Part shown: piece by piece, positions 10,996 through 47,751 of the stretch
Numbering within the stretch: the stretch's first letter is position 1
Layout of the letters: each line of letters starts with the position of its first letter
Source: Squalus acanthias
Lineage: Eukaryota
Direction: 5' to 3'
Assembly: GCA_030390025.1 (NCBI GenBank)
Contig: JASTWF010000327.1
Coordinates: 62,001-126,000, forward strand
DNA length: 64,000 nucleotides
Program-made: the position numbers and the translations under genes
Notes under the pieces: generated by a model
The model's database searches: none
Seen by the model: the letters and a program-made list of their open reading frames with translations, nothing else
Told to the model about the DNA's origin: nothing

Positions 10996-11204
10996 AAAAA
11001 GGATGCGTCTAGTGACACTGGTGTCAATAGTTGTTTCTATCCCTAACCCCTTATTCTATCCCATAAGCATAACCACTAACCTGTAATCCTAACTACTAAC
11101 CCCTAGTTGTAACCCTCACCAATAACCCCATAACCATAACCACTAACCCCAAAGTGTAACATCTGTCCCAAACTCCAAGACCTCAATCACTAACCCTAAA
11201 TTTT

Positions 11205-11420
11205 TCATTGTCAATGGTCATTGTGATGCCACTGATGATGCAGGTTGGTCGTGTTGTCAATGGTCATTGTGATGTCACCGATGATGCAGGTCGGTCGTGT
11301 TGTCAATGGTCATTGTGATGTCACCACTGATGCAGGTCGGTCGCGTTGTCAATAGTCATTGTGATGTCACCGATGATGCTGGTCAGTCGTGTTGTTAATA
11401 GTCATTGTGATGTCACCATG
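11205..11420 (+). repeat. 46-bp minisatellite (about 4.5 copies), preceded by a degenerate CCCTAA-like tract (11040-11200)
   Basis: Unit gtcaatggtcattgtgatgtcaccgatgatgcaggtcggtcgtgtt. Confidence 0.85.
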
Positions 11421-11910
11421 CACCGTTGTTCTTCCTGACTCTAAACACAGTTGTAAAGGAGCCTTCTGTTCCGTGCCTAGGAGCTCTGAACCATGGAAGA
11501 GAGCGGCTGGGACACATTTCTTACATGCCTCAAGATTAACCCGCACGGGGACTTTGCTGTCAGTGAAGAGAGACGAGAAAGACCAAAGTGCATTTTGCCC
11601 CTCTCAGTGTGGCCCTGAAGGACTGTGTCCAGGCTGAAGTTCTGTTCCCGCCGTACGATCTTCCCCCAGATTGTCCTTTCTGAGCTCCAGCCAGGTGATG
11701 CTAAACACTCAGGTGGGAAAGACAAAAATCTACAACAATGTGTTTAAAACAAAGCTGATTTATTTGATATATATCAAGGATATTAATTTCCAGCCCAGTT
11801 TATAGGGGTTATTAACATCAGCAGAAACAAACCTCAACTGTCAGAATGAACATGGTTCAGTCCCTGATGTGATTAACAGCAGCAATAACAGCAGAATCCA
11901 ACCCCTGTAG

Positions 11911-12730
11911 TCATATATGAACTCGCTGGTGTTTCAGCAGATCCTTTTTGCTTTTAAAGCTCTTCTCACAGTCATAACATTTAAAAGGTCTCTCCTCAGT
12001 GTGAACAAGTTGATGTTCAGTGAGGTGGGATGACTGAGTGAATCCCTTCCCACACATGGAGCAGATGAATGGCCTCTCCCCAGTGTGAACTCGCTGGTGC
12101 GTCAGAAGGCTGGATGAATCAGTGAATCCCTTCCCACAATCAGTGCAGGTGAACGGCCTCTCCCCAGTGTGAACTCGCAGATGTCTCAGCAGGTGGGATG
12201 ATCGGATGAATCCCTTCCCACACACGGAGCAGGTGAATGGTCTCTCTCCAGTGTGTGTATGTTGGTGTGTCAGCAGATGCTGTTTGCTTTTAAAACTCTT
12301 CTCACAGTCAGAACATTTAAAAGGTCTCTTGTCAGTGTGAACATGCTGGTGTGTGAGAAGGTGGGATGACTGAGTAAATCCCTTCCCACACACAGAGCAG
12401 GTGAATGGTCTCTCTCCAGTGTGAACTCGCTGGTGTATCAGCAGATCCTTTGTGCTTTTATAGCTCTTCTCACAGTCAGAACATTTAAAAGGTCTCTCCC
12501 CAGTGTGAACTCGCTGGTGTGCCAGGAGGTTTGATAAAGCATTAAATCCCTTCCCACATTCGATGCAGGTGAATTTCCTCTCTCCAGTATGCACTCGCTG
12601 GTGTGTATGGAGGCTGGATGACTGAGTGAATCCTTTCCCACACACAGAGCAGATGAACGGCCTCTCCCCCGTGTGACTGCGTCGATGAGTTTCCAGTTCA
12701 GATGGATAACCATTTCCACGGTTTCTCCAT
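11911..12730 (-). pseudogene. C2H2 ZNF cassette, 10 fingers, frameshifted in finger 1 (ZNF-C)
   Basis: ATG at 12730 is followed by a 23-nt deletion (820+23=843 nt, i.e. 280 aa + stop). The remaining 9 fingers are open. Confidence 0.8.
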
Positions 12731-13949
12731 GGTGCGGGTGTCCTTGTGTCTCTCCAGGTTGGATGATCAGTTGAAGCCTCGTCCACACACAGAACACGTG
12801 TACGGTTTCTCCCCGCTGTGAACGGTGCGATGTTTTTTCAGGCAGTGTAACTGGTTAAAGCTTTTTCCACAGTCAGTGCACTGGAACACTCTCACTCGGG
12901 TGTGTGTGTCTCGGTGCTTTTCCAGTCACTCTGATCTTTGAAATCTTTTCCCATACAGAACAGGCAAATATTTCTCCTTTCACATTCAAAGGCTGATGAT
13001 ATTCCCTGTAAAAGCAGTTTACAAAAGACATCACTGTAAGTTCAGGATAAAACTGCAGTACAGATAATTCTAGTTTCTATGGAACATTCTTTCCTCTCTT
13101 TTACATAGAATTACATAGATTGTACAGCACAGAAACAGGCCATTCGGCCCAACTAGTCCATGCGGTGTTTATGCTCCGCACGAGCCTCCTCCCATCTCTC
13201 TTCATCTCACCCTATCAGCATCTCCTTCTATTCCTTTCTCCCATGTGTTTATCCAGCTTCCCCTGAAATGCATCCCTGCTATTCGCCTCAACTACTCCCT
13301 GTGGCAGCAAGTTCCACATTCTCAGCACTCTCTGGGTGAAGGAGTTTAATCTAAATAAGACTTTCCTGGGCAGCCAATGAGCACTGCTGCCTCTTCTGTG
13401 CATTTCCTGGCGAGGCTAAACAGTTGATATTTTCTGATCAAAAAGAGCTGAGCTCGGCAGCATTAGTCCTGTTTTGCCTCCCTTGGAGACCAGGTGTACG
13501 AGCAGAGTGAGCGCAGCCTTCACAGCAACCGCAATAAAATTGTTACAGTTGTGAAGGAACTATGTGTCAGTGCACTGGACCACAAACAAAGTATGTGTCG
13601 ATTATTGTCTGATTGCGCTACTGTGACATTTTAAAGGCGCTATATAAAGGTAAGTTGTTGTTGGTGTGAGTTTGCGGTGTGTAAATGCTGCCCTTCTCAC
13701 AGCCTGTAAAAGGAGTTTCCAAAAGCCATGACTGTGAGTCCAGGATAGAAATTGACAAGATTCTCTCCTCCTGGTTCCTGGCCAAGGGGGCCGCGCATGC
13801 GCCCTGCTGCCCCCTGAGCCTGTCAAGATGGCGGCCGTTAACCCGGGCCTGTCACCGGGAGAAAGCCCCGCAGCTGCCGCCCCGCTCGGGGCAAAGGCCC
13901 GGCCCGGAGGCTCTTGTTCGGGGCCTGAGGCCCACCCCAGGTGTTTGTG

Positions 13950-14400
13950 CAGCGGATAATGTTGAGTGTTTTAATAATGGGGCCTGGGGCCGCACTCGGG
14001 GTGTGTGCAGCCCGCGTCCCCCCGGGGTTTATTAACCCGCTCCCTGAGCTCTCTCACCTGATGTGTCAGCGGCTGCTGCCAAGATCCGCGCATGCTCAGC
14101 TCTCCTTTCGTTGTTCAGGTTCAAAGGTCAAGACCCGCCCCTCCCACACTCCGATTGGTTGGAGGACCCGCCGCCCGCTCGGTCCTCCAGGCCCGCCCCG
14201 CTCTTCCTATTGGTCCGGAGCTCCCGTCAATTACCCGGGCAGTGTGAGCTGAGCATGCGCGGACCTTGGCAGCAGCCTGCTGACACATCAGGTGAGAGAG
14301 CTCAGGGAGCGGGTTAATAAACCCCGGGGGGACGCGGGCTGCACACACCCCGAGTGCGGCCCCCAGGCCCCATTATAAGATCAGTGAACATTATCCGCCT
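13950..14400. promoter_or_regulatory. Palindromic bidirectional CpG promoter P2 with mirrored first exons
   Basis: About 150-bp inverted arms (13951-14102 and 14246-14398), each carrying an NRF1-like GCGCATGC and a CAG|GTGAGA donor. The core has ATTGG (CCAAT) and CCGCCC boxes. Lies between divergent ZNF genes. Confidence 0.75.
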
Positions 14401-14805
14401 CCACCCGCGGGTTCCCGTTTCGCTCCGGCCCGAATCTCAACAAAGCCCCAAACTCCGGGAGAGACAGGAAGTGAGTCAGGGAGCGTCTGTAAATGGAGGA
14501 GAAATGGACACTGGTCAGGGAGCGTCTGTAAATGGAGGAGAAATGGTGATTGATCAGGGAGCGTCTGTAAATGGAGGATAAATTATTCATTATTTTGGGG
14601 CTTGGTTTATGTGAATAAATATATCACTAATTTCAATGAGACTCTTTTCTGTGCCCCAGCTCCTGTAAATACTGGCTGGCAAGGGGCCGGACTCTCAGGA
14701 GGCTCCACACCGCTGGCTGCTCGTGTGTCAGTGATCTCCCATCAGATTAAAGTGCTTCTGCTGTGTGTGTGTTTAACAAAGTGCCCGAAGCAGTTCATAA
14801 GGTGG

Positions 14806-15235
14806 GGAACCAATGAGTGTAGAACTGAACCCAGCCAGAGTCAGCACCTTCAGGGGAGGAGAGGGAGGGGAACCAGTGAGTGTAGATCTGAACCCAGCCA
14901 GAATCAGCACCTTCAGGGGAGGAGAGGGAGAGGAACCAGTGAGTGTAGAACTGAACCCAGCCAGAGTCAGCACCTTCACGGGAGGAGAGGGAGAGGAACC
15001 AGTGAGTGTAGAACTGAACCCAGCCAGAGTCAGCACCTTCAGGGGAGGAGAGGGAGGGGAACCAGTGAGTGTAGAACTGAACCCAGCCAGAGTCAGCACC
15101 TTCAGGGGAGGAGAGGTAGAGGAACCAGTGAGTGTAGAACTGAACCCAGCCAGAGTCAGCACCTTCAGGGGAGGAGAGGTAGAGGAACCAGTGAGTGTAG
15201 AACTGAACCCAGCCAGAGTCAGCACCTTCAGGGGA
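14806..15235 (+). repeat. 62-bp intronic minisatellite (about 7 copies)
   Basis: Unit gaaccagtgagtgtagaactgaacccagccagagtcagcaccttcaggggaggagagggagg. Confidence 0.95.
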
Positions 15236-15679
15236 GAATAAAAATGTTGGAGATGGTGCGATGGTTTAGATTTCAGCACAGGGAGGAGGGAGAGTGTGTG
15301 GGACGGGGATTTACAGCTTTGGGGAACAAGAGAGGAAAGAATGTTCCATAGAAACTAGAATTGTCTGTTCTGAATTTCTATCCTGTACTCACAGTGATGA
15401 CTTTTGTAAACTCCTTATACAGGGTATTAGAAGAGGGGGAGGATTTACAGCCGGGAAACTCAAACCAAACATCACTTCAAGATCTGACAGAGTCACTCAA
15501 TAGAGCAGGACCCGAATATCATCGGCGTTTGAATGTGGAAGGAGAAATGTTTTAACTAATTACACAGCCTGAAAAAACATCGCACCAATCACATTGGGGG
15601 CAAACAGTACACTTGTTCTGTGTGTGGACGAGGCTTCAACTGATCGTCCAACCTGGAGAGTCACAAGGACACCCGCACC

Positions 15680-16103
15680 ACGGAGAAAACCGTGGAAATG
15701 TGGGGACTGTGGGAAGGGATTCAATTACCCGTCTGAGCTGGAAATTCATCGACGCAGTCACACCGGGGAGAGGCCGTTCACCTGCTACGTGTGTGAGAAG
15801 GGATTCACTCAGTTATCCACCCTGCAGATACACCAGCGAATTCACACCGGGGAGAGGCCGTTCACCTGCCCCGTGTGTGGGAAGGGATTCACTCAGTCAT
15901 CTAATCTGCTGAGACACCAGCAAGGTCACACTGGGGAGAGGCCATTCACCTGCTCCATATGTGGGAAGATATTCTCTCAATTATCTGGCCTTCTGGCACA
16001 CCAGCGAGTTCATACAGGGGAGAGGCCATTCACCTGCTCCGTGTGTGGGAAAGGATTCAGCTGTCCATCCCACCTGCTGAAACACCAGCGAGTTCACAAG
16101 TGA
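15680..16103 (+). pseudogene. C2H2 ZNF cassette, 5 fingers, ACG start plus 1-nt insertion (ZNF-D)
   Basis: accACGgagaaaaccg has an extra A. 424 nt = 5 x 84 + 3 + 1. Confidence 0.75.
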
Positions 16104-16567
16104 CTGCAGGGGTTGGATTTGGCTGTTATTGCTGCTGTTGATCACATCCAGGACTGAACCATGTTCATTCTGACAGTTGGAGTTTGTTTCTGCTGATGTT
16201 AAACTCCAGCCCAGTTATTGGGGTTATTAGCATTTTGCATATATAGCTGATTGTGATCTCGGGGCTGTAGTGTCCCTTTAAGAACCGCTGTCTGTGATCT
16301 TTCCCCTTAATTCAGGGCCTCTCATCAGAAATTACTTAGCAATAAAATTAACTTTTACTTCAATCCTAAATTAATCTTTGGCACAAAATCTACAATTCAG
16401 TGTCTGAAAGGCACCTCCATTATCCACCAGAAAGAAGGGGAATGGGAATTGGTGGAGATCGAGAATCCCCAAATGTTGCTCCTCCCGTCTGGTACAGCAA
16501 TCCCGTCGGCACGGGAATGGAGACAAGTCCAATCCAAGTAACAGGCTGAGTTTAATCTTTCTGGGCC

Positions 16568-17012
16568 TGTGGGGTTGGTTTATATCAGACAGGAGGAGAT
16601 TGGTGTCAGTGACTGTGGGGTTGGTTTATATCAGACAGGAGGAGATTGGTGTCAGTGACTGTGGGGTTGGTTTATATCAGACAGGAGGAGATTGGTGTCA
16701 GTGTCTGTGGGGATAGTTTATATCAGACAGGAGGAGATTGGTGTCAGTGACTGGGGTTGGTTTATATCAGACAGGAGGAGATTGGTGTCAGTGACTGTGG
16801 GGTTGGTTTATATCAGACAGGAGGAGATTGGTGTCAGTGACAGTGGGTTGGTTTATATCAGACAGGAGGAGATTGGTGTCAGTGACTGTGGGGTTGGTTT
16901 ATATCAGACAGGATGAGATTGGTGTCAGTGACAAGGGTTGGTTTATATCAGACAGGAGGAGATTGGTGTCAGTGACTGGGGTTGGTTTATATCAGACAGG
17001 AGGAGATTGGTG
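16568..17012 (+). repeat. 46-bp minisatellite at the 3' end of a ZNF cassette
   Basis: Unit ggggttggtttatatcagacaggaggagattggtgtcagtgactgt. Confidence 0.95.
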
Positions 17013-17029
17013 TAATTGAATCATATCAG

Positions 17030-21350: not shown

Positions 21351-21384
21351 CCCCTTTACGTGATGTTTGGTCTGAGCTTCCTGT

Positions 21385-22695: not shown

Positions 22696-23039
22696 TATTT
22701 ATATCTTTCCTGAGGTGCGTTGTGTAAAACTGAACACAGTACCTGTTGGAAAATAAAGCGCTTCTACATAGGTTGAGCATTAAACAATGACTGAAGGGCT
22801 AACACAGGCACCATGGGCACCACCAAGTTAATCTGAGAGACTACATGCAGCTCGACGCTGAATTCTGACCACAGAAAGCACATTCTCGAGCAAAACCAGA
22901 TGGAACAGGAAGTTAAGGCGGAAACAGAAGCAGATGTCACTTGGCAGCAAACTCGCCTCTGACTCTGAAGGTTCTGGGTTCAAATCCCACTGCGAGTTTC
23001 AGCCAATGAGGGAGCTCCGGGCTGTGCCCCGCCCACTAG

Positions 23040-23310
23040 GTGCCGCAAGCCCCGCCCCTCCCACACTCCGATTGGTTGGGGGACCCGCCGCCAGCTCGGT
23101 CCTCCAGACCCGCCCCGCTCTTCCTATTGGTCCGCCAGCTCCAGTCAATCACCCGGGCAGTGTGAGCTGAGCATGCGCGGACCTTGGCAGCAGCCGCTGA
23201 CACATCAGGTGAGAGAGCTCAGGGAGCGGGTTAATAAACCCCGGGGGGACGCGGGCTGCACACACCCCGAGTGCGGCCCCAGGCCCCATTATTAAAACAC
23301 TCAACATTAT
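23040..23310 (+). promoter_or_regulatory. Single arm of the P2 promoter/first exon
   Basis: Near-identical to 14135-14398 and 44870-45110. Donor CAG|GTGAGA near 23208. Confidence 0.7.
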
Positions 23311-23926
23311 CCGCTTCACAAACACCCGGGGTGGGCCTCAGGCCCCGAACAAGAGCCTCCGGGCCGGGCGTTTGCCCCGAGCGGGGCGGCAGCTGCGGGG
23401 CTTTCTCCCGGTGACAGGCCCGGGTTAACGGCCGCCATCTTGACAGGCTCAGGGGGCAGCAGGGCGCATGCGCGGCCCCCTTGGCCAGGAACCAGGAGGA
23501 GAGAATCTTGTCAATTTCTATCCTGGACTCACAGTCATGGCTTTTGGAAACTCCTTTTACAGGCTGTGAGAAGGGCAGCATTTACACACCGCAAACTCAA
23601 ACCAAACATCACATCAAGATCTGACAGAGTCACTCCATTCATCAGGACCCGAATATCATCGGCCTCTGAATGTGGAAGGAGAAATGTTTGTCTGTTCTGT
23701 CTGTGGGAAAAGATTTCAAACATCAGTGTGACTGGAAAAGCACCGAGACACACACACCCGAGTGAGAGTGTTCCAGTGCACTGACTGTGGAAAGAGCTTT
23801 AACCAGTTACACAGCCTGAAAAAACATCGCACCGTTCACAGCGGGGAGAAACCGTACACGTGTTCTGTGTGTGGACGAAGATTCAACTGATCGTCCAACC
23901 TGGAGAGTCACAATGAATCCCGCACC

Positions 23927-24671
23927 ATGGAAAAACCGTGGAAATGTGGGGACTATGGGAAGGGATTCAGTTCCCCATCGAAGCTGGAAACTCATCGACG
24001 CAGTCACATTTACCTGCTCCGTGTGTGGGAAGGGATTCACTCATTCATCCAACCTTCTGAGACACCAGCGAGTTCACACTGGGGAGAGGCCATTCACCTA
24101 CTCCGTGTGTGGGAAGAGATTCACTCAGAGATCCAGCTTGCTGATCCACCAGCGAGTTCACACTGGGGAGAGGCCGTTCACCTGCTTCATGTGTGGGAAG
24201 GGATTCACTCGTTCATCTGAGCTTGTGAAACACCAGCACATTCACACACGAGAGAGGCTGTTCACCTGCTCCGTGTGTAAGAAAGGATTCACTTGTTCAT
24301 TCGAGCTTTTGAGACATCAACGCATTCACACTGGAGAGAGGCCATTCACCTGCTCCACGTGTGGGAAGGGATTTAATCGACCATCCAAACTTCTGACACA
24401 CCAGTGCATTCACACTGGAGAGAGGCCGTTCACCTGTTCCGTGTGTGGGAAGGGATTCACTAATTCATCTGATGTTCTGACAGACCAGCGAGTTCACACT
24501 GGGGAGAGACTGTTCACCTGCTCCATGTGTGGGAAGGGATTCACTTGTTCATCCAGCCTGCTGACACACCAGCGAGTTCACACTGGGGAGAGGCCGTTCA
24601 CCTGCTCCGTGTGTGGGAAGGGATTCACTCAATCATCCCACCTGCTGAGACACCAGCGAGTTCACAAGTGA
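23927..24671 (+). pseudogene. C2H2 ZNF cassette, 9 fingers, 14-nt deletion after finger 1 (ZNF-E)
   Basis: 745+14=759 nt = 252 aa + stop. Also Cys>Tyr and His>Asp ligand losses. Confidence 0.8.
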
Positions 24672-33020: not shown

Positions 33021-33024
33021 TGTA

Positions 33025-33600
33025 CAAAAGCAAAATACTGCGGCAGCTGGAAATCTGAAATAAAACAGAAAATGCTGGAAATACTCAGGACAGCATCTGT
33101 GGAGAGAGAAACAGAGTTAACGGTTCAGGTCAATGACGTTTCATCAGAACTGTAAAATGTTAGCAATGTAACAGGTTTTAAGATGGACCTCGTGTAGACG
33201 AGGGAAGGATGGAAATTGGAAGTAAAGTTGATGAAGTTTTCCAGTTCAGGGCGAGAGCAGGAACCGGCACCAATAGTTATCAATGTACCGGAAAAAGAGG
33301 TGAGGGAGGGGACCTGACTCGGACTGGAACAAAGAATGTTCCACATATCCCATGAAAAGGCAGGCATAGCTAGGACACATGCGGGTTCCCATAGCAATGC
33401 CTTTATTTGGAGGAAGCGAGTGGAGTCAAAGGAGAAGTTGTTCAATGTGGGACAAGTTCAGCCAGGTGTAGGAGGCTGGTGGTGGATGGGGACTGGTTGG
33501 GCCTCTGTTCAAGGAAGAAGCGGAGCGACCTCAGGCCGTCCAGGTAGTGGATGGAGGTGTAGAGGGATTGGATGTCCATGGTGAAAAGGAGGAGGAGTGA
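33025..33600 (-). mobile_element. Penelope-like fragments
   Basis: pLTR tail matching 22560-22690, plus an RT remnant (FTMDIQSLYTSI). Confidence 0.7.
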
Positions 33601-33608
33601 AAAGGGCC

Positions 33609-36600
33609 AGGAGTAGGCCATTCGGCCCTTCGAGCCTGCTCCGCCATTCAATGAGATCATGGCTGATCTTCTGCCTCAACTCCATTCACCGGCCCTATCG
33701 CCATATCCCTTGATGCCCTTACTAGTCAGACATATATCGACTTCTGTTTTGAATATACCCAATGACTGAGCCTCCATCGCCCTCTGGGGTAGAGAATTCC
33801 AAAGATTCACCACCCTCTGTGTGAAGAAATTTCTTCTCATCTCAGTCCTGAATGGCCTACCCTTTATCCTGAGGCTGTGGCCCCTGGTTCTAGACTCCCC
33901 AGCCAAGGGAAACATTCTCCCAGCATCCATCCTATCAAGCCCTGTAATAATTTTGTATGCTTCAATGAGATCCCCTCTCATTCTTCTGAATTCAAGAGAA
34001 TACAGGCCTAGTTTACTCAACCTCTTCTCATACGGCAGTCCCGCCATCCCAGGAATCAATCTCGTGAACCTTCGTTGCACTCCCTCTATGGCAAGTATAT
34101 CCTTCCTTAGGTAAGGAGACCAAAATTGTACATAGTACTCCAGGTGTGGTCTCACCAAGGCCCTATATAATTGGAGTAAGACTTCTTTACTCCTGTACTC
34201 AAATCCTCTTGTAATGAAGGCCAGCATACCATTTGCCTTCCTAATGGCTTGCTGCACCTGCACATTCACTTTCAGTGACTCATGTACAAGGACACCCAGG
34301 TCCCTTTGAGCATCTGCATTCCCCAATCTTTCACCATTTAGGAAATACTCTGCCTTTCTGTTTTTTCTACCAAAGTGGATAACTTCACATTTATCCACAT
34401 TATATGCCATTTGCCATGTTCTCGCCCACTCACTGAGCCTGTCGAGAACCCCTTGAAGCCTCTTCACATCCTCTTCGCAACTGACACTGCCACCTAGCTT
34501 TGTATCATCAGCAAATTTGGAAATGTTACATTTAGTCCCCTCATCCAAATCAATGATATAGATAGTGAATAGCTGGGGCCCAAGCACCGATCCTTGCGGT
34601 ACCCCACTAGTCACAGCCTGCCATCCCGAAAAAGACCCGTTTATCCCTACTCTTTGTTTTCTGTCTGTTAACCAATTCTCAATCCATGCTAGTATATTAC
34701 CCCCAATTCTATGTGCCCTAATTTTGTTCACCAACCTCTTGTGTGGGACCTTATCGAAGGCCTTCTGAAAATCCAGATACACCACATCTACCGGTTCCCC
34801 TTTGTCTACTCCACTAGTTACATCCTCAAAGAACTCCAATAGGTTTGTCAAATAGGATTTCCCTTTCATAAATCCATGTTGACGCTGCCCAATCTTACTA
34901 TTAGTTTCTAAGTGCCCAGTTATTGCATCCTTTATAATAGATTCCAGCATTTTCCCAACTACTGATGTGAGGCTAACAGATCTGTAGTTCCCCGTTTTCT
35001 CTCTCCCTCCTTTCTTAAATAGCGGGGTTACATTTGCTATCCTCCAATCTGCGGGAACCGTTCCAGAATCTATAGAATTTTGGAAGATGACAACCAATGC
35101 GTCCACTATTCCAATGGCCACCTCTTTCAAAACCCTAGGATGTAGGTCATCCGATCCTTGGGATTTATCGACTTTTAGTCCCATTAATTTTGCTAGTACT
35201 GTTTTTTACTAATAATAATTTCTTTAAGTTCCTCATTCTCGTCACACCCTTGGTTTCCTTGTATTTCTGGGAGGTTTTTTGTGTCTTCCTCCGTGAAGAC
35301 AGAAACAAAGTATTTATTTAATTTCTCTGCCATTTCCTCATTCCCCATTATAAATTCTCCCGTTTCTGACTGTAAAGGACCTACATTTACCTTCGCCAGT
35401 CTTTTCCTTTTCACATACCTATAGAAGCTTTTACAATCCGTTTTTATATTTTGCGCTAGTTTGTGCTCATATTCCATTTTCCCTTTCTTTATCAATTTCT
35501 TGGTCCCCCTTTGCTGATTTCTAAAAAGATCCCAATCCTCAGGCTGACCGCTTTTTCTGGCAACTTTATAAGCTTCCTCCTTTGACTTAATACTAGCTTT
35601 AAATTTCTTTTGTTAGCCATGGTTGGATCACTTTTCCTTTTGGGTTTTTATGGCCTAGAGGAATATATGTTTGTTGCAAATTATGCATTATTTCCTTGAA
35701 TGTTAGCCATTGTATGTCCACCTTCATACCTTTTAGTGTAGTCTCCCAATCTACCATGGCCAACTTGTCCCTCATACCCTTGTAGTTTCCTCTGTTTAGA
35801 TTGAAGACCTTAGTTGCAGATTGGACTACATCACTCTCAAACTTAAATGTACAGTTTAATCATATTATGGTCACTTGTCCCTAAAGGCCCCTTTACCACA
35901 AGATTATTGATTAGCCCTTTCTCATTACACAGTACCAGATCCAGAATAGCCTGTTCCCTGGTTGGTTCCTCCACATACTGATCCAGGAAACCATCTCGCA
36001 TGCATTCCAAGAATTCGTCCTCCACACCATTAGTGGTAATTTGATTTGCCCAGTCAATATGTAGATTAAAGTCCCCCATGATAACCGTATTGCCCTTGTT
36101 ACATGCACTTCTAATCTCTTGATTGATACGGTGCCCTACATCACCACTACTGTTTGGTGGCCTATACACAACTCCCACCAATGTTTTCCGCCCTTTGCTG
36201 TTTCTTAGCTCCACCCAAACTGATTCCAGTTCTACATCACGATCTGCCAAGCCAAGATCTTTTATCTCTACTGAAAGGGTTAATTTGAACTCATGTTAAA
36301 TTAAAACTCTCTTAGCTGTAAAAAGGGAATGGAAGTTATGTACGAAATAGAATAAGAAGCAACCAGGTGGATGATAAGGAGTGGCTGCCTAGCTCCAGTC
36401 AAGGACAGCATACAATGGGCAACTGTGGAGAAATACAATGGACAAGTATGGGAATGAGATGAGACCCAGCACCCAGGCAAGGCACAGAATGTGGTTCCCA
36501 ACAAACATTGCTTGCAGCATATATATGTGATTGGATAATTGTTTTTAGTTTGTAGCTGACAAAGATAAGAAATATAAAGAATTAACCGGTTTAGTCTGAA

Positions 36601-37589
36601 TTGACATAATTGTAATCATGTGATATTTTGTAACAATGTGATTGGATAATTCTTAAATAAAAGGTTGTAACTGACAGCGGGAGGTTGAGAAGCCGTGGTC
36701 ACTAGGCCGGGTAAGGTCTATGACTCTTCTCACAGAGATCTCTGAACATTAATAAACTGTTTGCTTTTACCTATCAACACAGACTGGAGTGAAATTAATT
36801 TCTCCCTAACATCTACCGTACCGATCTCATCCCTTATTAACAGCGCTACGCCACCTCCTTTTCCTTTTTGTCTGTCCTTCCTAAATGTTGAGTACCCTGG
36901 AACATTCAGTTCCCAGCTTTGGTTACCCTGCAACCATGTCTCTGTAATGGCAATTACATCATACCCATTTACTTCTATTAGTGCCATTAATTCATCCACC
37001 TTGTTGCGAATGCTAAGTGCATTTAGATAAAGTGCCTTCAACTTTGCCTGTTTAATATTTTTCTGCACTTTGACCCTCTTTACTGTTGGCCTTTGTTTCT
37101 GCTCCCTACTAGTTTTGCTGACTACTTTTCTAACTTGCACTTCCAGCTTTGTTTCTCTCCATTCTGGGCCCACACTTTGGTTCCCAGCCCCCTGACAAAC
37201 TAGCTTAAATCCTTCCCAACAGCACTAGCAAACCCCCCTGCGAGGGTGTTGGTCCCGTTTCTGCCGAGGTGTAACCCGTCCAGCTTGTACAGGTCCCACC
37301 TTCCCCAGAGTGGTCCCAATGCCTCAGGAATTTAAATCCCTCCCTCCTACACCATCTCTCCAGCCACGCATTCAGCTGGTCTATTCTCCTATTTCTGCTC
37401 TCGCTAGCACGTGGCACTGGGAGTAATCCTGAGATTACTACCTTTGAGGTCCTGCTTTTTAATTTATTTCCTAGCTCCCTATATTCTGCTTGCAGGACCT
37501 TGTCCCTCTTTCTACCTATGTCGTTGATACCGATATGGACCACGACCTCTGGCTGTTCACCCTCCCCCTTCAGAATGTCCTGCAGCTGC
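33609..37589 (-). mobile_element. Near full-length CR1 LINE (ORF1 esterase end, APE, RT)
   Basis: HIGINDIG (SGNH esterase ORF1), YLNA.SI.NK, ITETWL, GDFN, SDHN and a 502-aa RT ORF. TSD ggaggagtgaaaagggcc near 33591 and 37591. Confidence 0.92.
36272..36811 (+). mobile_element. Solo LTR (540 bp) with 5-bp TSD, inserted in the CR1 endonuclease
   Basis: TGAAAGGGTTAA...AATAAA...CCCTAACA, flanked by tctac at 36267-36271 and 36812-36816. Confidence 0.88.
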
Positions 37590-37674
37590 AGGAGGAGTGA
37601 AAAGGGCCCAGAAACTGGTAACTGTTAAAGTGGCAGAGGGCACTTACACCCTGGTCCACTTTTGAATCATCTCC

Positions 37675-38930
37675 AACACAGGAGTTCCTCAGGGCAGTGT
37701 CCTATTCCCAGCCATCTTCAGCTGCTTTATCAATGGCCTTCCCACCACAAAAGGGTCAGAAGTGGGGAAGTTCGCTGATGATTGCACATTTTTCAGTTCC
37801 ATTTGCAGCTCCACAGATAATGAAGCAGTTCGTGCCTGCCTGCCGCAAGACCTGGACGACGTTCAGGTTTGGGCTGATAAGTGGCAAGAAATATTTGCGC
37901 TACACAAGTGCCAGACAATGACCATCTCCAACAAGAGAGTCTAACCACCACCCCTTGACATTCAATGGCATTACCATCACCGAAACCCCCATCATCAACA
38001 TCTTTGAAACTTATAAAATTCTGACAGGACAGGACAAACTAGATGCAGGAAGGATGTTCCCGACGGTCGGGGAGTCCAGAACCAGGGGTCACAGTCTAAG
38101 CATAAGGGGTAAGCCATTTAGGACAGAAATGAGGAGGAAGTTCTTCACCCAGAGAGTGGTGAACCTGTGGAATTCTCTGCCACAGAAGGCAGTAGAGGCC
38201 AATTCATTAAATAGATTCAAGAAGGAGTTGGATATATTTCTTAAGGCTAAAGGGATCAAGGGATATGGGGAGAAAGCAGGGACAGGGTACTGAATTTGGA
38301 TGATCAGCCATGATCGCATTGAATGGCGGAGCAGGCTAGAGGGGCCGAATGGCCTACTCCTGCTCCTATCTTCTATCTATGATTCTATGGAGGTCACCAT
38401 TGACCGGAAACTTAACTGGACCAGCTACATAAATACTGTGGCTACAAGAGCAGGTCAGAGGCTGGGTATTCTGTGGCGAGGGTCTCACCTCCTGACTCCC
38501 CAAAGCCTTTCTAGGCACAAGTCAGAAGTGTGATGGAATTATCTCCACTTGCCTGGATGAGTGCAGCTCCAACAACATACAAGAGGCTTGACACCATCCA
38601 GGACAAAGCAGCCCGTTTGATTGGCACCCCATCCACCACCTTAAACATTCACTCCCTACACCATCGGCGTACCGTGGCTGCAGTGTATACCATCTACCAG
38701 ATGCACTGCAGCACCTCCCAAACCCGCGACCTCTTCCACCTAGAAGGACAAAGGCAGTAGGCACATGGGAACACCACCAGCTGCAAGCTCCCCTCCAAGT
38801 CACACACCATCCTGACTTGGAAATAGACCGCCATTCCTTCATAGTTGCTGGGTCAAAATCCTAGGGATGGGCAATAAACGCTGGCCTTTCGAGCGAAGCC
38901 CACATCCCGTGAACGAACAATAAAAAAAAA
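37675..38930 (+). mobile_element. CR1-group LINE 3' fragment with a nested CR1 3' end (38005-38385)
   Basis: GVPQG and FADD remnants. The nested piece matches 17511-17890. Confidence 0.8.
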
Positions 38931-39199
38931 CAACCCCTCCCCTTCCCACAACACCTTTCCATGCAAGCACAGCAGATCCAACACATTGGTTGTAAAGCGC
39001 TTGGGCACCTCCGGTGCTCTTGAAAGGCGTTATATAAATGCAAGTCTTTCTTCTTTTCTCTCTCCATAGACGCTGCCTGACCTGCTGAGTATTTCCAGCA
39101 TTTTCTGCTTTTATTTCAGATTTCCAGCATGCGCTGTATTTTGCTTTTGTGTTGAGATGTTGAAACACCCGCTGTGTGCAGAGTGAGAATAAAATCAAT

Positions 39200-39660
39200 G
39201 AGTCAATGATTTTCTCCCCTGGTCACTGGGACCCTGAAGCCCCGCCCACTCATTGTTCCTTTACAAAGATGGCCGCTCATAAGCTCCGCTGCACTATGAA
39301 TCAAAATGGCGGCGCACTAAACCTTCCAGCTTTCCTTTGCAAACATGGCGGCAATTAACTGGGGCCTGTTACCGGGGAAAAAGCCCCGGATCTGCAAACG
39401 CGGAACCTGCAGGTTCTTATTCGGGGCTTGCGGCCTACACCAGGTGCTTATGAAGCCCACCTGCCAGACCCATTACTCTCCTGCGACCATCGCCTCTCAC
39501 CTGCTGCAAAACTGTGTCTGCGACCTCTGCCCACTTCCAGCTCTCGCCCAAGTCTGATCGAAGTCACACTGCGCATGCTCCTTATAACGTCCCGCACCGC
39601 GCCTGCGCACTGGTCTCCTGTAGCGTGAATAGGGCACAATCTCCCCGCGGGGCATGCTGG
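39200..39660 (-). promoter_or_regulatory. Paralog of promoter P1
   Basis: Colinear with 7600-8530; has AAAATGGCGG (YY1-like) and TGCGCATG motifs. Confidence 0.5.
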
Positions 39661-39809
39661 GTAACATTGGAACCCCCAATCAGTGAATGGAATATGATTT
39701 TCTGTGAACCGATTGAGATAAAATTAATAAATAATTCAGACAGAAACCCAAGTGCACGGGCACTCTGCCATCGTTCAGTCTTGGATAACAGCAGAATTCA
39801 CCCCCTGCA

Positions 39810-40520
39810 GTCACATGTGAACTCACTGGTGTCTCAGCAGGTGGGGTGAATTTCTTCGCACACACAGGATATTGAAACAGCCTCTCTCCAGTATGAATGC
39901 GCTGATCGTGCATCAGCTGCTTTCAACTTTGAAAGCTTTACTCACAGTAAGTGTATTTAAAGTAACAGTTCTCAATGTGGACAATCGGGAGTGTCAACAG
40001 TTGGGACAATGGAATGAATCACTTCCCACACGTGAAGTATCTAAAACGGCCTCTCTCCGGTGTGACTGTGCTGGTGTGTCAGTAAATGGGATGATCAGTT
40101 GAATCCCTTTCCACATACAGAGCAGTGAATGGATTCTCCACATTACAAACATGCTAGTGTGGTAGTAGGTGAGATGAGCAAGTGAATCTCTTTCCACACT
40201 CAGCTGGTGAACGGCCTCTCCCCAGTGTGACTATCCATGAGTTTCCACCTCAGATGAGCAACCGAATGCGTTCCCGCAGTCCCCACATTTACATTGTTGA
40301 TGCAGGTGGGCGCACGAGCCTCACGGGCTGGACGATTGGTTGAAGCTGCGTTCACACACAGAACACGTGTCCTGTTTCTCCCCGCTGTGATTGGTGTTTT
40401 TTCCTTCTATATCCAATGCCCGATGATATTCAGGTCCTGATGAATCTGATGAATCTGTCAGATCTTGCCGCGATGTTTGGTTTGAGTTTCCCATCTGCAG
40501 ATCCTCCCCTGCAAATGGTG
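39810..40520 (-). pseudogene. Degenerate ZNF cassette psi-B'
   Basis: Colinear with 8680-9790, without the Penelope insertion. Confidence 0.75.
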
Positions 40521-41479
40521 TTTACAACAGGATTGAAATTCAGAACAGAAAATCTAGTTTCTACAGAGCATTCTGTATCTTCCTGTCCCTCCTAAGCTGT
40601 AAATTCCCTATTCTCCACACTCTCCCTCCATCCTCACTGTCTGAAAACAACGTTCATTACACCATCAGGGATTTTGTTTTCCCCCTTCTCTCCAGAAGGT
40701 GCTGAATCTGGCTGGGTGCAATTCCATCGCCATTAAAAAACCTCCAGGGCCTCACCGTCACCTGACACAGTGAGTGTTAGCAGGGTTTCCACTGTGGTCG
40801 GCATCACAGCCGAGTCCAATCCTGCCCTCGATTGACATTCATACACTTCCCAGCTGGTGTCACTGGATCGCCACCAAGAGCAGGGGCACTGGCTGATTTT
40901 TACTTTTATTTAGCCCAGTGGAACTGAGGCCAATTATAGCCCCTGAACTGCTGCCTTGGCTAAGATCAACAAACAGCACAGATCAAGGGTTGAACTTGGG
41001 ACTTTCCCAGTCAGTAGTGCAGAGTGTTTTAAAGTTGGGGAGGGGGGAGCGGGGGAGGGTTAGAACAGAATATTTTGAAAGAAATATCACTCCACCTTTG
41101 GTACATTTCAAAATTCTAAAGTCTTTCAAAATTAAACAAGCAAGTTAAATGGATCTTCAAAAATAGTGAGGCATTTTATAAAGTCTCAAGTCACTAAAAT
41201 AGACAGGTTTACAATCACTGCACGAGTACAGAAGGGAGTGACTCTTAACAGGAGCTCTGTCAGTGAAGTGCTCCAACATGCCAAGATAAACAAGACTGTC
41301 CCTTTAACTATAAATATGCAAAGAAAAGGGGTCACTGTTCCTTTAAATATATGCCCCATTCCCCCAGACAGTGGGAGGAGGAACAGCGTGCGGTTTCTTT
41401 ATAACCTGACCCAGCAGGCCTCACGCGGGAACCCTCTCTATGTGGGGGCGTGGTCTCAGGAACCAGCTCTGTGGGGACA

Positions 41480-41920
41480 GCTTACACTGAGGCACCAAAT
41501 CCAGGGACCACTAACATTGTGACCCCAAATCCAGGGACCACTTACATTGTGACCCCAAATCCAGGGACCACTTACATTGTGACTCCAAATCCAGGGACCA
41601 CTTTCATTGTGACCCCAAATCCAGGTACCACTTACATTGTGACCCCAAATCCAGGGACCACTTATATTGTGACCCCAAATCCATGGACCACTTACATTGT
41701 GACCCCAAATCCATGGACCACTTACATTGTGACTCCAAATCCATGGACCACTTACATTGTGACTCCAAATCCATGGACCACTTACATCGTGACCCCAAAT
41801 CCAGGGACCACTTACATTGTGACTCCAAATCCAGGGACCACTTACGTTGTGACTCCAAATCCATGGACCACTTACATTGTGACTCCAAATCCAGGGACCA
41901 CTTACATTGTGACACCAAAT
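41480..41920 (+). repeat. 30-bp minisatellite (about 14 copies)
   Basis: Unit ccagggaccacttacattgtgaccccaaat. Confidence 0.95.
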
Positions 41921-42839
41921 GAAAAAGGCCGTGTCCAGTGACAATGGCATCGCCAATAGTTTGTAAGATGTGACTTTCTTTTTTAGTTATCCTGGTGTCT
42001 AACACACACACATCAATAAAACAGGGAATTCCTGGAAACACGCTGCAGGTCCTTCTTTATCTGGAGATCAAATGTCTGTTGTTAACAGCAGTTAACAGGC
42101 TCCTGTGAACTCCTCCCTCTACTATTTTAATGTAGACTTTAACCAATTTATTTTAAACGGGTTTATTTTAAATGAGTTAACGCCTGCCTTAAAATGGTAG
42201 ATTCAGGAATGTCACACAAACACGTTAAATCTACATAGAATAATTACCAGCCATTTTTAGACTGGAAACTTAAACCTGCCGTTTCACTTTCAGTCAGGAA
42301 CAGATCGCAGTTTGACACCAATCTCTGATTTGACAGCACGTTTCCAGCATTCACCGTTGTTCTTCCCGACTCTAAACACGGTTGTAAAGGAGCCTTCTGT
42401 TCCGTGCCCAGGAGCTCTGAACCATGGGAGAGAGCGGCTGGGACACATTTCTTACAGGCCTCGAGATTAACCCACACAGGGACTTTGCTGTCAGTGAAGA
42501 GAGACGAGAAAGACCAAAGTGCCGTTTTCCCCTCTCAGTGTGGCCCTGAAGGACTGTGTCCAGGCTGAAGTTCTGTTCCCGCCGTACAATCCTCCCCCAG
42601 ATTGTCCTTTCTGAGCTCCAGCCAGGTGATGCTAAACACTCATGTGGGAAAGACAAAAATCTACAACAATGTGTTTTTAAAAAGCTGATTTATTTGACAT
42701 ATATCCAGAATAATAAACTCCAACCCAGTTACAGGAGTTATTAACATCAGCAGAAACAAACCCCAACTGTCAAAATGAACATGGTTCAGTCCTGGATGTG
42801 ATTAACAGCAGCAGTAACAGCCGAATCCAACCCCTGCAG

Positions 42840-43418
42840 TCACTTGTGAACTCGCTGGTGTGTCAGCAGGTGGGATGGACAGCTGAATCCCTTCCCACAC
42901 ACAGAGCAGTGAACGGCCTCTCCCCGGTGTGAACTCGCTGGTGTGTCAGCAGGTGCTGTTTGCTTTTAAAACTCTTCTCAGTCAGAATCTTTAAATGGTC
43001 TCTTGTCAGAGTGAACAAGTTGGTGTGTCAGCAGGTTGGATGAAGAAGTGAATCCCTTCCCACACACGGAGCAGGTGAATGGCCTTTCCCCAGTGTGAAT
43101 GCGTTGGTGTGTCAGCAGATCCTTTGTGCTTTTATAGCTCTTAGAACATTTATAAGATTTCTCCTCAGTGTGAACTCGCTGGTGCGTCAGGAGGTTTAAT
43201 AAAGTATTAATTCCCTTCCCGCATTCAATACAGGTGAATGACCTCCCTCCAGTGTGAATTCACTGGTGTGTCAGAAGTTTGGATGACCGAATGAATCGCT
43301 TCCCACATAATGAGCAGGTGAACGGTCTCTCCCCGCTGTGACTGCGTCGATGAGTTTCCAGCAGTGATGCACAATTGAATCCCTTCCCACAGTCCCACAT
43401 TTCCACGGTTTCTCCGTG
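42840..43418 (-). pseudogene. C2H2 ZNF cassette, about 7 fingers, multiple lesions (ZNF-C')
   Basis: ACG start, premature stop and indels. Shares fingers [18 protein letters not shown] and [10 protein letters not shown] with ZNF-C. Confidence 0.8.
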
Positions 43419-44137
43419 GTGCGGGTGTCCTTGTGTCTCTCCAGGTTGGACGATCAGTTGAAGCCTCGTCCACACACAGAACACGTGCACGATTTCTCCC
43501 CGCTGTGAATGGTGTGATGTTTTTTCAGGCTGTGTAACTGGTTAAAACATTTCTCATCCACATTCAAATGGCGATGATGTTCAGGTCCTGATGTATTGAG
43601 TGTCTGATCTCTGTCAGATCTTGACGTGATGTTTGCTTTGAGTTTTCCGTCTGCAAATCCTCCCCATCTAACACCCTGTGAAAGGAGTTTACAGAAGTCA
43701 TCACTTTAAGTACAGGATAGAAATTCAGAACAGACAATTCTAGTTTTTATGGAACATTCCTTTCTTTCTTGTTCTCCACTGAAGGTGCTGACTCTGGCTG
43801 GGTTCAGTTCTACACTCACTGGTTCTCCTCATTTTCCTTCCCTGAAGGTGCTGACTCTGGCTCTAACCATCTTTCCAATACACTGTCCTTCCTTATAAGC
43901 TTTTCTTCTGTAATATCTCACAATTTTGGTGAGGGGCACTCCTTGACCTGTCACAATTTCTCCTCCAATTACAGAGGCTCCCTGACCCGTCACCATTCCT
44001 ATTTCATTTACAGACGCTTCCTGACCCGTTTCCATTTCTCCTCCATTTACAGACGCTCCCTGACTTCCTGTCTGTCCCGGAGTTTGGCGCGGGGCCCCTT
44101 TGCTGAGCGAATCGGGAGAAACCGGGAAGCGGCGGGC

Positions 44138-45112
44138 GGATAATGTTGAGTGTTTTAATAATGGGGCCTGGGGCCGCACTCAGGGTGTGTGCAGCCCGCG
44201 TCCCCCCGGGGTTTATTAACCCGCTCCCTGAGCTCTCTGGACTCAACATAGAGTTCAACAATTTCAGATCATAACCTCGGCCCCTATCATATATATATTT
44301 TTTATCCACACTTTTTGTTTGTGCCTTTTGTTCTTCTCTCCCACATGGCAGCTGTCTTTCATTCTGCCAGCGCAATTCACACTTCATCTCGAGCCATCCT
44401 TTGTTTCTTAACCTGTCCCATTACCATTCCTTTTGCCTTGAATATCTCTTAATGTCTCTTTACTTCTCCTGCCTTCTATCCTATCACAGACCTTCCCTTT
44501 TGTTCTTTCATCCCCTCCCCCATTTCCCAGCCCCTAAACTTGCTTTAAAACTGTTCCATTTCCTGCTTTTTTCCAGTTCTGCCGAAAGGTCATCGACCTG
44601 AAACGTTAATTCTGTTTCTCTCTTCACAGATGCTGCCTGACCTGCTCAGTATTTTCTGTTTTTATCCCTGAGCTCTCTCACCTGATGTCAGAAGCTGCTG
44701 CCAAGGTCCGCGCATGCTCAGCTCACACTGCCCGGGTGATTGACAGGAGCTCCGGACCAATAGGAACAGTGGGGCGGGGCTGGAAGTCCGCGCGAGCTGC
44801 GGGTCCTCCAACCAATCGGAACAACAGAAGGTTGGCTGCTCAGCAGGTCCCGCCCCCTTGCTGCGCCGCCATTGATTGGATGACCCGCCACCGGCTCGGT
44901 CCTCCAGCCCCGCCCCGCTCTTCCTATTGGTCCGGAGCTCCCATCAATCACCCGGGCAGTGTGAGCTGAGCATGCGCGGACCTTGGCAGCAGCCGCTGAC
45001 ACATCAGGTGAGAGAGCTCAGGGAGCGGGTTAATAAACCCCGGGGGGACGCGGGCTGCACACACCCCGAGTGCGGCCCCAGGCCCCATTATTGAAACACT
45101 CCACATTATCCG
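44138..45112. promoter_or_regulatory. Palindromic bidirectional promoter P2'; left arm split by a Penelope fragment (44239-44665)
   Basis: Inverted arms 44666-44820 and 44870-45020, continuing into 44138-44238 and 45020-45112. TSD ccctgagctctct flanks the insert. Confidence 0.75.
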
Positions 45113-45462
45113 CTTCACAAACACCCGGGGTGGGCCTCAGGCCCCGAACAAGAGCCTCCGGGCCGGGCGTTTGCCCCGAGCGGGGCGGCAGCTGCGGGGC
45201 TTTCTCCCGGTGACAGGCCCGGGTTAACGGCCGCCATCTTGACAGGCTCAGGGCGCATGCGCGGCCCCCTTGGCCACGAACCAGGAGGAGAGAATCTTGG
45301 CAATTTCTATCCTGGCCTCACAGTCATGGCTTTTGTAAACTCCTTTTACAGGCTGTGAGAAGGGCAGCATTTACACACCGCAAACTCACACCAAACAACA
45401 ACTTACCTTTATATAGCACCTTTAAAACATCACAGTAGCGCAGTCAGACAATAATCGACACA

Positions 45463-45890
45463 CATTTCCGCCACCTCCAGCGTGATCCTACCACCAAACG
45501 CATCTTCCCCGCACCTCCCCTTTCAGCATTCCGTAGGGACCGCTCCCTCCGCGACATCTTAGTCCACTCCTCTACCACCCCTTCCCCTTCGCCCGGCACC
45601 TTCCCGTGCAAGCGCAGGAGATGCAACACCTGCCCTTTTACCTCCCCCCTTCCCACTGTCCAGGGCCCCAAACACCCCTTCCAAGTGAAACAGCGATTTA
45701 CTTGTACTTCTTGCAATTTATTATACTGTATTCGCTGCTCACGATGTGGTCTCCTCTACTTTGGGGAGACCAAACGCAGATTGGGTGACCGCTTTGTGGA
45801 ACACCTCCGTTCAGTCCGTAAGGGGGACCCCGAGCTTCCAGTTGCCTGTCACTTTAATTCACCGCTCCACTCCCACTCAGACCTCACCGT
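45463..45890 (+). mobile_element. Penelope GIY-YIG fragment in intron
   Basis: LLYCIRCSRCGLLYFGETKRRLGDRF. Absent from the paralogous intron near 13590. Confidence 0.85.
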
Positions 45891-46908
45891 CCAGTGCACT
45901 TACACAAAGTTCCTTCATAACTGTAACAATTTTATTGCGGTTGCTGTGAAGGCTGCGCTCACTCTGCTCGTACACCTAGTCTCCAAAGGAGGCTAAACAG
46001 GACTAATGCTGCCGAGCTCAGCTCTTTTTGATCAGAAAATATCAACTATTTCGCCTCGCCAGGAAATGCACAAAAAAAGGCAGCAGTGCTCATAGACTGA
46101 CCGGGAAAGTACTATTTAGATTAAACTCCTTCACCCAGAGAGTGCTGAGAATGTGGAACTTGCTGCCACAGGGAGTAGTTGAGGCAAATAGAAAGAAATA
46201 CTTGCATTTATATAGCGCCTTTCACGACCACCGGACTTCTCAAAGCGCTTTACAGCCGATGAAGTACTATTTGAAGTGGATTCAGAGTCGTAATGTGGGA
46301 AACGCGGCAGCCAATTTGCGCACAGCAAGGTCCCACAAACAGGAATGTTTGTGAATAGCATAATGCATTCAAGAGGAAGCTGGATAAACTCATGGGAGAA
46401 AGGAATAGAAGGAGATGCTGATAGGGTGAGATGAAGAGAGATGGGAGGAGGCTCGTGTGAAGCATGAACACCGCATGGACCAGTTGGGCCGATTGGCCTG
46501 TTTCTGTGCTGTACAATCTATGTAATTCTATGTAATAAGAGAGGAAAGAATGTTCCATAGAAACTGGAATTATCTATTCTGCATTTTTATCCTGAACTTA
46601 CAGTGATGTCTTTTGTAAACTGCTTTTACAGGGAATATCATCGGCCTTTGAATGTGGAAGGAGAAATGTTTGTCTGTTCTGTCTGTGGGAAAAGATTTCA
46701 AACATCAGTGTGACTGGAAAAGCACCGAGACACACACACCCGAGTGAGAGTGTTCCAGTGCACTGACTGTGGAAAGAGCTTTAACCAGTTACACAGCCTG
46801 AAAATACATCGCACCATTCACAGCGGGGAGAAACCGTACACGTGTTCTGTGTGTGGACGAGGCTTCAACTGATCGTCCAACCTGGAGAGACACAAGGACA
46901 CCCGCACC

Positions 46909-47751
46909 ATGGAGAAACCATGGGAATGTGGGGACTGTGGGAAGGGATTCAGCTCCCCGTCCCGGCTGGAAACTCATCGACGCATTCACACCGGGGAGAG
47001 GCCGTTCGTCTGCTCCGAGTGTGGGAAGGGATTCAGTCAGTCATCCCACCTTCTGAGACACCAGCGAGTTCACACTGGGGAGAGACCGTTCAGTTGCTCT
47101 CACTGCAGGAAGAGATTCGGGCGGTTATCGAACCTCACTGACCACCAGCGAGTTCACACTGGAGAGAGGCCATTCAGTTGCTCTCAATGCGGGAAGAGGT
47201 TCAGGCAGTTATCGAACCTCACGGAACACATGCGAGTTCACACTGGAGAGAGGCCATTCACCTGCACTGAGTGTGGGAAGGTTTTTGCTCGATTAGCCAA
47301 CCTCACTAAACACCAACTTGTTCACACTGAAAAGAGACCTTTCAAATGTTCTGAGTGTGGGAAGAACTTTAAAAGCACAAGAGATCTGCTGACACACCAA
47401 CACACTCACACTGGGGAGAGGCCGTTCACCTGCTCCATGTGTGGGAAGGGATTTGCTAATTCATCCCACCTGCTGACACACCAGCGCGTTCACACTGGGG
47501 AGAGGCCGTTCACCTGCTCCATTTGTGGGAAGGGATTCATTCAGTCATCCCACCTGCTGAGACACCAGCGAGTTCACACCGGAGAGAGGCCGTTAACCTG
47601 CTCCGTGTGTGGGAAGGGATTCACTGATTCATCCCACCTGCTAAATCATCAGCGAGTTCACACTGGGGAGAGACTGTTCACCTGCTCCGTATGTGGGAAG
47701 AGATTCACTCGGTCATCCCACCTGCTGAAACACCAGCGAGTTCACAAATGA
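46909..47751 (+). CDS. C2H2 zinc-finger protein, 10 fingers, no effector domain (ZNF-D')
   Basis: Intact 280-aa ORF (10 x 28) with all Cys/His ligands present and a Kozak accATGG start. Confidence 0.88.

Follow-up and report, generated by a model that had tools for sequence, protein, structure and literature searches.

We analysed 64,000 nucleotides of the shark Squalus acanthias (positions 62,001 to 126,000 of contig JASTWF010000327.1, assembly GCA_030390025.1, forward strand; hereafter the window, with all positions counted from its first letter), in which C2H2 zinc-finger (ZNF) genes and fragments of such genes lie clustered amid pieces of long interspersed nuclear elements (LINEs) and minisatellites. 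At the center of the analysis stand two pairs of genes arranged head to head, C with D (block 1) and C' with D' (block 2), the names A to I having been assigned in this work. Eight genes were compared (A, C, D, E, F, C', D', and H), and the 64 kb additionally contain the fragments or decayed copies B, B', G, and I. As expected of a birth-and-death C2H2 cluster, the window is rich in neighboring paralogues with poly-C2H2 arrays, and intact and broken copies are mixed: A, D', and H are intact from the ATG of the MEKP motif, C, C', D, and E are broken there, and F has ACG. The nearest paralogue differs from one gene part to another, be it by identities, characters, or trees. The start of the genes reads MEKPW and is preceded by a leader of dead finger sequence; no KRAB exon was seen in these genes, for which no dedicated KRAB scan was made. 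The parts of the two blocks are the following, with exon limits predicted from splice motifs:

8234 to 11040, colinear with 39334-41965: left context of block 1, comprising decayed B, intergenic DNA (87.3% identical over 716 columns), and a 30-bp minisatellite.
11414 to 11910, minus strand: 3' untranslated region (UTR) of C with its C-type flank, which is truncated at 11414; flanks of this type also follow C', E, and H.
11911 to 12730, minus strand: finger array of C, 10 finger units, with a 23-bp deletion in finger 1 that closes the ATG frame after 10 codons.
12731 to 13950, minus strand: full leader and 5' arm of C (arm X) with a 95-bp exon deletion, the second intron, and the putative exon 2 and first intron; inverted match to 45114-46908 of D'.
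13952 to 14398: promoter core of block 1 with a 151-bp inverted repeat at 13952-14102 and 14246-14398, the copies 96% alike.
14399 to 15679, plus strand: 5' arm of D (arm Y) with 39-bp and 63-bp intron repeats, an acceptor at 15424, and a leader with a 110-bp deletion.
15680 to 16560, plus strand: gene D with ACG in place of ATG, a 1-bp insertion directly after it, 5 fingers, and a D-type flank.
41980 to 42839, minus strand: 3' UTR and C-type flank of C', with the switch from D-like to C-type in the shared UTR at about 42700-42818.
42840 to 42928, minus strand: last finger and stop of C', D-like, 94% identical to finger 5 of D, with 5 minority sites common to D alone.
42929 to 43253, minus strand: fingers 3-6 of C', a C-like tract at 86.8% to fingers 3-6 of C, with 9-bp and 2-bp deletions.
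43254 to 44135, minus strand: D/Y-like 5' part of C' with fingers 1-2, an in-frame TGA at 43260-43262, ACG at 43417, a leader with the 110-bp deletion, and arm Y, in which the 39-bp repeat is present.
44136 to 45113: promoter region of block 2, two back-to-back promoter copies (78% over 242 columns) with the same inverted repeat around them.
45114 to 46908, plus strand: arm X and full leader of D'; the second intron holds two more inserted repeats and is 94.0% identical to that of C over 571 columns.
46909 to 47906, plus strand: gene D' with an intact 280-codon frame, 10 C2H2 fingers, UTR, and a C-type polyadenylation (polyA) region, followed by unique DNA.

The two head-to-head pairs are truly opposite in orientation, with C corresponding to D' and D to C'. 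A sequence-only reading of this stretch had proposed that recombination between the inverted constant leaders flipped the central promoter and intron segment and swapped which finger array sits behind which promoter arm, as an invertible cassette might do to shuffle arrays. Every motif that it named was found, and the dot-plot that it suggested as a check is not colinear: the promoter and intron segment of block 1 (approximately 13.0-15.7 kb) is inverted relative to that of block 2 (43.5-46.9 kb). On the minus strand, 13279-13580 matches 46191-45889 (94%), 13594-14102 matches 45462-44963 (95%), 14295-14584 matches 44238-43955 (83%), and 15320-16097 matches 43778-43011 (81%). Inverted homology is present at both ends of the segment, with leaders that are 89.4% alike between C and D and 96.2% between C' and D' (123-130 columns). 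The left context is colinear at about 80% (8234-8846 with 39334-39993 and 9470-10994 with 40184-41650), takes in the 30-bp minisatellite, and is joined by a colinear match of 11414-12424 with 42345-43341 (79%). Gene C and D' form a single inverted piece that runs from the intron through the array into the polyA region (11735-13284 with 47906-46353, 83% over 1583 columns), so that the inverted match goes on past the leader. No colinear DNA was found between the right of D and the right of D', where matches comprise family-wide UTR and dispersed repeats only; the blocks therefore have one boundary in common and not two.

Some of the markers in these genes are specific to one pair. For C and D', these are the 95-bp exon deletion, present in only these two of the eight genes, and the second intron, as the sequence-only reading had recognized; for D and C', the 39-bp intron repeat and a last finger with S-C-P-S; and for C and C', the tract of fingers 3-6, which match in register over 325 columns. 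The latter supports the claim that C and C' occupy the same place and share fingers, but the shared 3' flank that was also invoked is not pair-specific: A C-type flank follows four genes, namely C, C', E (23.2-25.5 kb), and H (59.2-61.0 kb), and among their six pairwise comparisons C-C' is the lowest at 94.6% (remaining pairs 94.9-96.4%). The D-type flank is found at D, A, F, G, and the 62.5-kb fragment I. Likewise, the D-type intron, leader deletion, ACG, and last finger ascribed to C' are all present in both C' and D, but the 110-bp leader deletion also occurs in A (7.2 kb) and the ACG in F (31.5 kb). The 3' flank (four genes), the leader deletion (three genes), and the ACG (three genes) were thus rejected as diagnostics of one pair. 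As a joint, the 110-base leader skip is also seen in the public runs X1 and X2. Leader identity was discarded as a breakpoint marker, too, with no breakpoint placeable among leader copies that are 86-98% alike and with D on a long branch.

It is clear in direction that C' is the odd gene and D' is not, and that the mixing of modules reaches beyond these pairs. From its intron through the ACG and finger 1, C' is D/Y-like; its fingers 3-6 are C-like, its last finger and first UTR bases are D-like again, and everything from the polyA region onward is C-type, which amounts to three switches within 700 bp. The tree of last fingers joins C' and D with support values of 96/98 from a bootstrap that had not settled. 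In a four-gamete test of 10 hand-chosen and non-independent presence/absence characters across the eight genes, 16 of 45 character pairs fail (B, B', G, and I, which have no comparable 5' parts or are heavily decayed, were excluded from this table, whereas the 3' alignment and trees do include G and I). Failures number 7 of 45 if C' is removed, 16 without D', 11 without C and D, and 7 without C' and D'. Since these 7 conflicts persist in the absence of both block 2 genes, mosaicism is not confined to block 2. Gene C' is one chimeric pseudogene, which likely arose from ectopic crossover and gene conversion.

A crossover between the inverted leaders would predict that the left gene combines arm Y with the array and flank of C and that the right gene combines arm X with the array and flank of D. 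Contrary to this prediction, D' carries neither a D-specific finger nor a D-specific flank, and its polyA region is C-type. In register, the fingers of D and D' are 87, 85, 67, 73, and 70% alike, and none of the ten D' fingers has a D-specific helix; C and D' agree in having 10 finger units and an FKC...THQHTH finger at position 6 (85%). The D-type flank seen in A, D, F, G, and I is lacking in D'. A tree of the polyA region separates C, C', D', E, and H from D, A, F, G, and I with support of 100/100 and rejects a grouping of D with D' (approximately unbiased test, p-AU 4.9e-8), and a tree of the acceptor region, which left out E and H, joins C with D' (100/99) and rejects C with C' (p-AU 0.0002). 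The D-like last finger of C', which had been counted in support of a flip, lies downstream of the proposed breakpoint and hence argues against it. What holds of the proposed swap is a mosaic produced by recombination of paralogues with an inverted center and a left side that fits in part, while the reciprocal product on the right is missing: Where a reciprocal inversion would leave two junctions with both outer sides colinear, the left side is colinear and the right is not.

Orientation, the three switches of C', the C-type character of D' at both its 5' arm and its polyA region, and the mixing of modules in other genes are directly established. To account for them, we lean towards a reading in which the pairs are oppositely oriented and only C' is a patchwork, one that was likely created by ectopic crossover and gene conversion among similar copies of the family. 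Within the 3' UTR that the genes share, a crossover or switch of template would have joined an inverted copy of the pair to the context of B, minisatellite, and flank, a step that would have left no second matching junction. The C-type fingers 3-6 may have been copied into C', or left behind in it, by a separate conversion-type event, and continued exchange would have kept leaders, exon-1 repeats, and flanks alike, so that each module has its own nearest neighbor. The duplicated intergenic DNA stands at 87.3% identity. Higher values are reached by arm X in its second intron (94.0%; Fisher p 4e-5) and by the C-type flank (94.6%; p 2e-4), and the acceptor and exon of D and C' stand at 88.8%. One duplication and one flip would not give this spread of identities, and exchange after the duplication is required in any model.

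The main rival holds that the inverted leaders, or the first fingers, of one pair recombined once and swapped its arms by inversion; later exchanges would then have replaced the array and flank on the right as well as the last finger of C'. We regard this course of events as rather unlikely, though it draws on the colinearity of the left context, the C-type flank, and fingers 3-6 of C and C', on a finger tract that has diverged like the intergenic DNA, and on the inverted leaders of block 2, which are 96.2% alike over 130 columns. Against it stand the missing reciprocal junction on the right and the D-like last finger of C' beyond the breakpoint, and undoing the proposed flip raises the four-gamete conflicts from 16 to 22 of 45 (if applied to block 2) or 24 (block 1).

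Several points count against the patchwork reading that we prefer. Fingers 3-6 of C and C' (86.8%) occupy the same finger positions and show the same divergence as the intergenic DNA (87.3%, p 0.84); a tract as old as the block duplication is what the flip model would give by plain inheritance. The difference in age between arm X (94%) and arm Y (88.8% and 77.1%; p 0.015) means that later exchange is needed here, too. The last-finger tree taken by itself does not reject D with D' (p-AU 0.057), and fingers 3, 4, and 10 of D' are only 62-70% like those of C in register, which leaves the D' array loosely C-like. Failures in the four-gamete test, given how its characters were chosen, can also result from secondary loss or repeated mutation. 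Finally, our reading costs about three events, the same as its main rival.

The promoter regions offer a different view on what might have been inverted. In block 1, each copy of the inverted repeat contains the putative exon 1 and splice donor of its gene, and the part with CCAAT and GC boxes faces D and is 91% like the promoter of E. This block has one clear promoter copy, which is approximately 80% like either copy of block 2, and the orientation of the core was therefore rejected as a test for a flip (80.3% to the right and 79.5% to the left copy; no discrimination). A single promoter in block 1 is explicable without a flip by loss of one of two ancestral copies. In block 2, a 440-bp repeat has inserted into the left copy of the inverted repeat and duplicated 14 bp of its target (44225, 44665). 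The inverted repeat of about 150 bp that flanks the core in both blocks has a hairpin z score of -25, as expected of any such repeat. The promoter core between the inverted repeats is the better candidate for a small invertible unit.

Three further observations concern these sequences. The inverted repeat of approximately 150 bp, with its putative exon 1 and donor, is 95-99% conserved among five copies and flanks a bidirectional promoter. The core of block 2 is a decayed palindrome of two promoter copies, which suggests that the pair arose through fold-back duplication of one promoter. The 440-bp insertion (44225-44678) lies directly behind the putative splice donor of C'.

These two back-to-back promoter copies also bear on a reading without any inversion, in which the pair was symmetrical at first and conversion, from an E-like donor or from one block to the other, later placed an X-type 5' end over the left arm of block 1 and the right arm of block 2. 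Arm X is indeed young and star-like, with identities of 97.5-98.6% among C, D', and E, and younger than the block duplication (the putative exon 2 and first intron of C are 98.6% identical to E versus 97.5% to D'); moreover, a second acceptor in C and D' is Y-like (83-91% to Y genes). But conversion tracts of kilobase length would be required twice, and the arm with the 39-bp repeat and the last finger that D and C' alone have in common would be left unexplained, so that we find this reading improbable.

Turning to the coding state, only D' among the four genes of the two pairs has an ATG-started frame with multiple fingers. In C, the 23-bp deletion brings a stop after 10 codons; D has the ACG and a 1-bp insertion; and C' has the ACG, 1- and 2-bp deletions, and the in-frame TGA. 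Two of the 1-bp changes, in short homopolymers, could be assembly errors, but not the 23-bp deletion, the ACG starts, and the TGA, of which the latter sits in a zero-mismatch contig of public run X2 (43161-43341). Of 21 public runs listed, the best had a word share of 0.65, and contigs of four were compared with 41930-48300. The 32 contig pieces listed are 79-194 bases long and too short to bridge a switch between arm and array or array and flank, and all 15 joints among those listed are skips. Contig depths summed per bin, a crude measure, range from 1e4 to 3e6, in line with a high-copy family.

One might suspect that C' is an assembly chimera of two paralogous loci joined at the leader or UTR, given that the family is very high-copy and that several frameshifts are 1-bp changes in short homopolymers. 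However, such an artifact would need three switches within 700 bp, C' has private changes throughout and is not near-identical to other copies in the window, and separate pieces of C' and the promoter occur free of mismatches in public runs (43161-43341, 43925-44018, and 44737-44873 in X2 and 43609-43696 in X1), though none of the 32 listed bridges a switch. We therefore judge an assembly chimera to be very improbable.

Programmed invertible cassettes include the R64 shufflon, the Hin and Fim switches, hsdS inversions, and, in methylotrophic yeasts, flip/flop mating-type switching. They recombine at short, defined sites or at long repeats that are maintained, give reciprocal products, work in both states, and mostly rely on a dedicated recombinase. 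The shark pairs resemble them only in the general notion that inversion can place a different variable part behind a constant one. That the segment is a recurrently invertible cassette, toggling in the population or in cells and shuffling arrays between promoters, could appeal to inverted homologies at three levels (the exon-1 repeat with 96% over 151 bp, the leaders with 89-96% over approximately 125 bp, and the UTRs) and to recurrent inversion between inverted repeats in humans (PMC3961182, in the part drawn on here). But these homologies are short, the leaders of block 1 are only 89% alike, and one repeat copy of block 2 is split by an insertion. Nor are there working products in alternative states, as a multi-finger frame with an ATG start is missing from three of the four genes, and there is no reciprocal product. 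The route to shuffling arrays that the sequence-only reading envisaged is not supported by these pairs; there is no sign of a programmed or repeating switch, and we hold a toggling cassette to be the least probable of all explanations considered.

Precedents for recombination of this kind are known from mammals. In the part of the work used here, young clusters of KRAB zinc-finger protein (KZFP) genes in the mouse are described as shaped by nonallelic homologous recombination (NAHR) and segmental duplication, including an inversion by recombination between two clusters in the CAST strain (PMC11952569). Like them, the shark locus is a repeat-rich tandem C2H2 cluster reshaped by such processes; unlike them, it has a MEKPW start after a dead finger leader and switch points inside one gene, and chimeric finger arrays and gene conversion are not described in that part of the mouse paper. 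Inversions between inverted repeats in humans exchanged first exons between inverted paralogues, and 11 of 16 analysed show signs of recurrence (PMC3961182, same part). With inverted paralogues at the segment ends and exchanged 5' gene parts, they are a direct precedent for the leader-flip model. They are reciprocal, however, with both orientations at one locus and breakpoints in high-identity parts of large repeats, whereas the shark locus is missing one junction, has homologies of 100-150 bp at 89-97%, and is known in one orientation per locus. Inversions of genes and pseudogenes by NAHR, in which head-to-head paralogues pair and yield chimeric fusion genes, belong to a setting of human disease and are reciprocal, unlike the shark pairs (PMC12632684, in the sections relied on here). 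At Peg3/Usp29, an engineered inversion of the bidirectional promoter swapped promoters and first exons (PMC5515438, again for the part used).

In the accessible main text of a survey of metazoan ZNF genes, neither "cartilaginous" nor "chondrichth" has a match (PMC10547256), and the part of the whale shark paper considered here does not treat these clusters (PMC8455134). More generally, neither this locus nor a natural invertible ZNF cassette of a vertebrate was found described in the open-access literature, a search that left subscription papers mostly outside and supplements, which may hold shark ZNF counts, unopened. Little was found in it on this family in cartilaginous fishes, for which the locus provides a well-resolved case of mixing among promoter arm, leader, finger tract, and 3' end. 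Finger tracts can move between paralogues, which is one of the ways in which new binding specificities are expected to arise, but C', the mosaic, is broken and the mechanism is of an already known type. The finding would gain much greater weight if both orientations were to segregate or arise somatically, because no natural vertebrate cassette of this kind turned up in the open-access literature searched. There is a slim chance that the head-to-head design is a standing recombination device that repeatedly inverts pairs and recombines promoters, finger tracts, and 3' ends across the family. Such a device would generate new DNA-binding specificities and expression patterns, and its smallest flippable unit would be the 145-bp core of block 1 between the 151-bp repeats, which faces D and is most like the arm-X promoter of E.

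The remaining genes and fragments of the window are the following:

6.4-7.6 kb, minus strand: gene A, ATG frame intact.
8.6-10 kb, minus strand: gene B, a decayed ZNF gene.
23030 to 25540, plus strand: gene E with promoter, inverted-repeat unit, arm X, and C-type flank; used as comparison copy.
30.4-33 kb, minus strand: gene F, ACG start.
39.8-40.7 kb: B'.
57.2 kb: G, a fragment.
59200 to 60979, plus strand: gene H with a non-X intron, an intact 6-finger frame, and a C-type flank that is nearest to that of C' (95.5%).
62.5 kb: I, a fragment.

The D' protein gave generic C2H2 matches with 38-66% identity among the 120 listed of 8000 scored, the highest among those listed being a ray protein (66%); as generic matches, they were discarded as a guide to orthology. 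The 5' stretch of C at 13661-14102 and that of E at 23164-23605, inverted and 9 kb apart, are 98.6-99.3% identical over exon 1, first intron, and exon 2 and form the most similar noncoding pair that we measured, likely through recent conversion or duplication. All full leaders (12731-13000, 23690-23926, 46670-46908, and 59370-59607) consist of dead finger repeats, and in each the MEKP start is preceded by the same two TGA codons. Arrays of one 46-bp minisatellite lie at or near the ends of both flank types (16567-17013, 26010-26965, 55298-55415, 61731-62362, and 5846-5870), with a change of orientation at about 26170. In F, the frame at 30815-31489 is open over 224 codons and 8 fingers with ACG replacing ATG, which could be a near-cognate start or a start lost recently. 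This gene is probably a positional duplicate of A, because approximately 6 kb of LINE-like pieces (33020-39160) separate it from a stretch at 39165-39291 that matches the promoter region of A at 92%.

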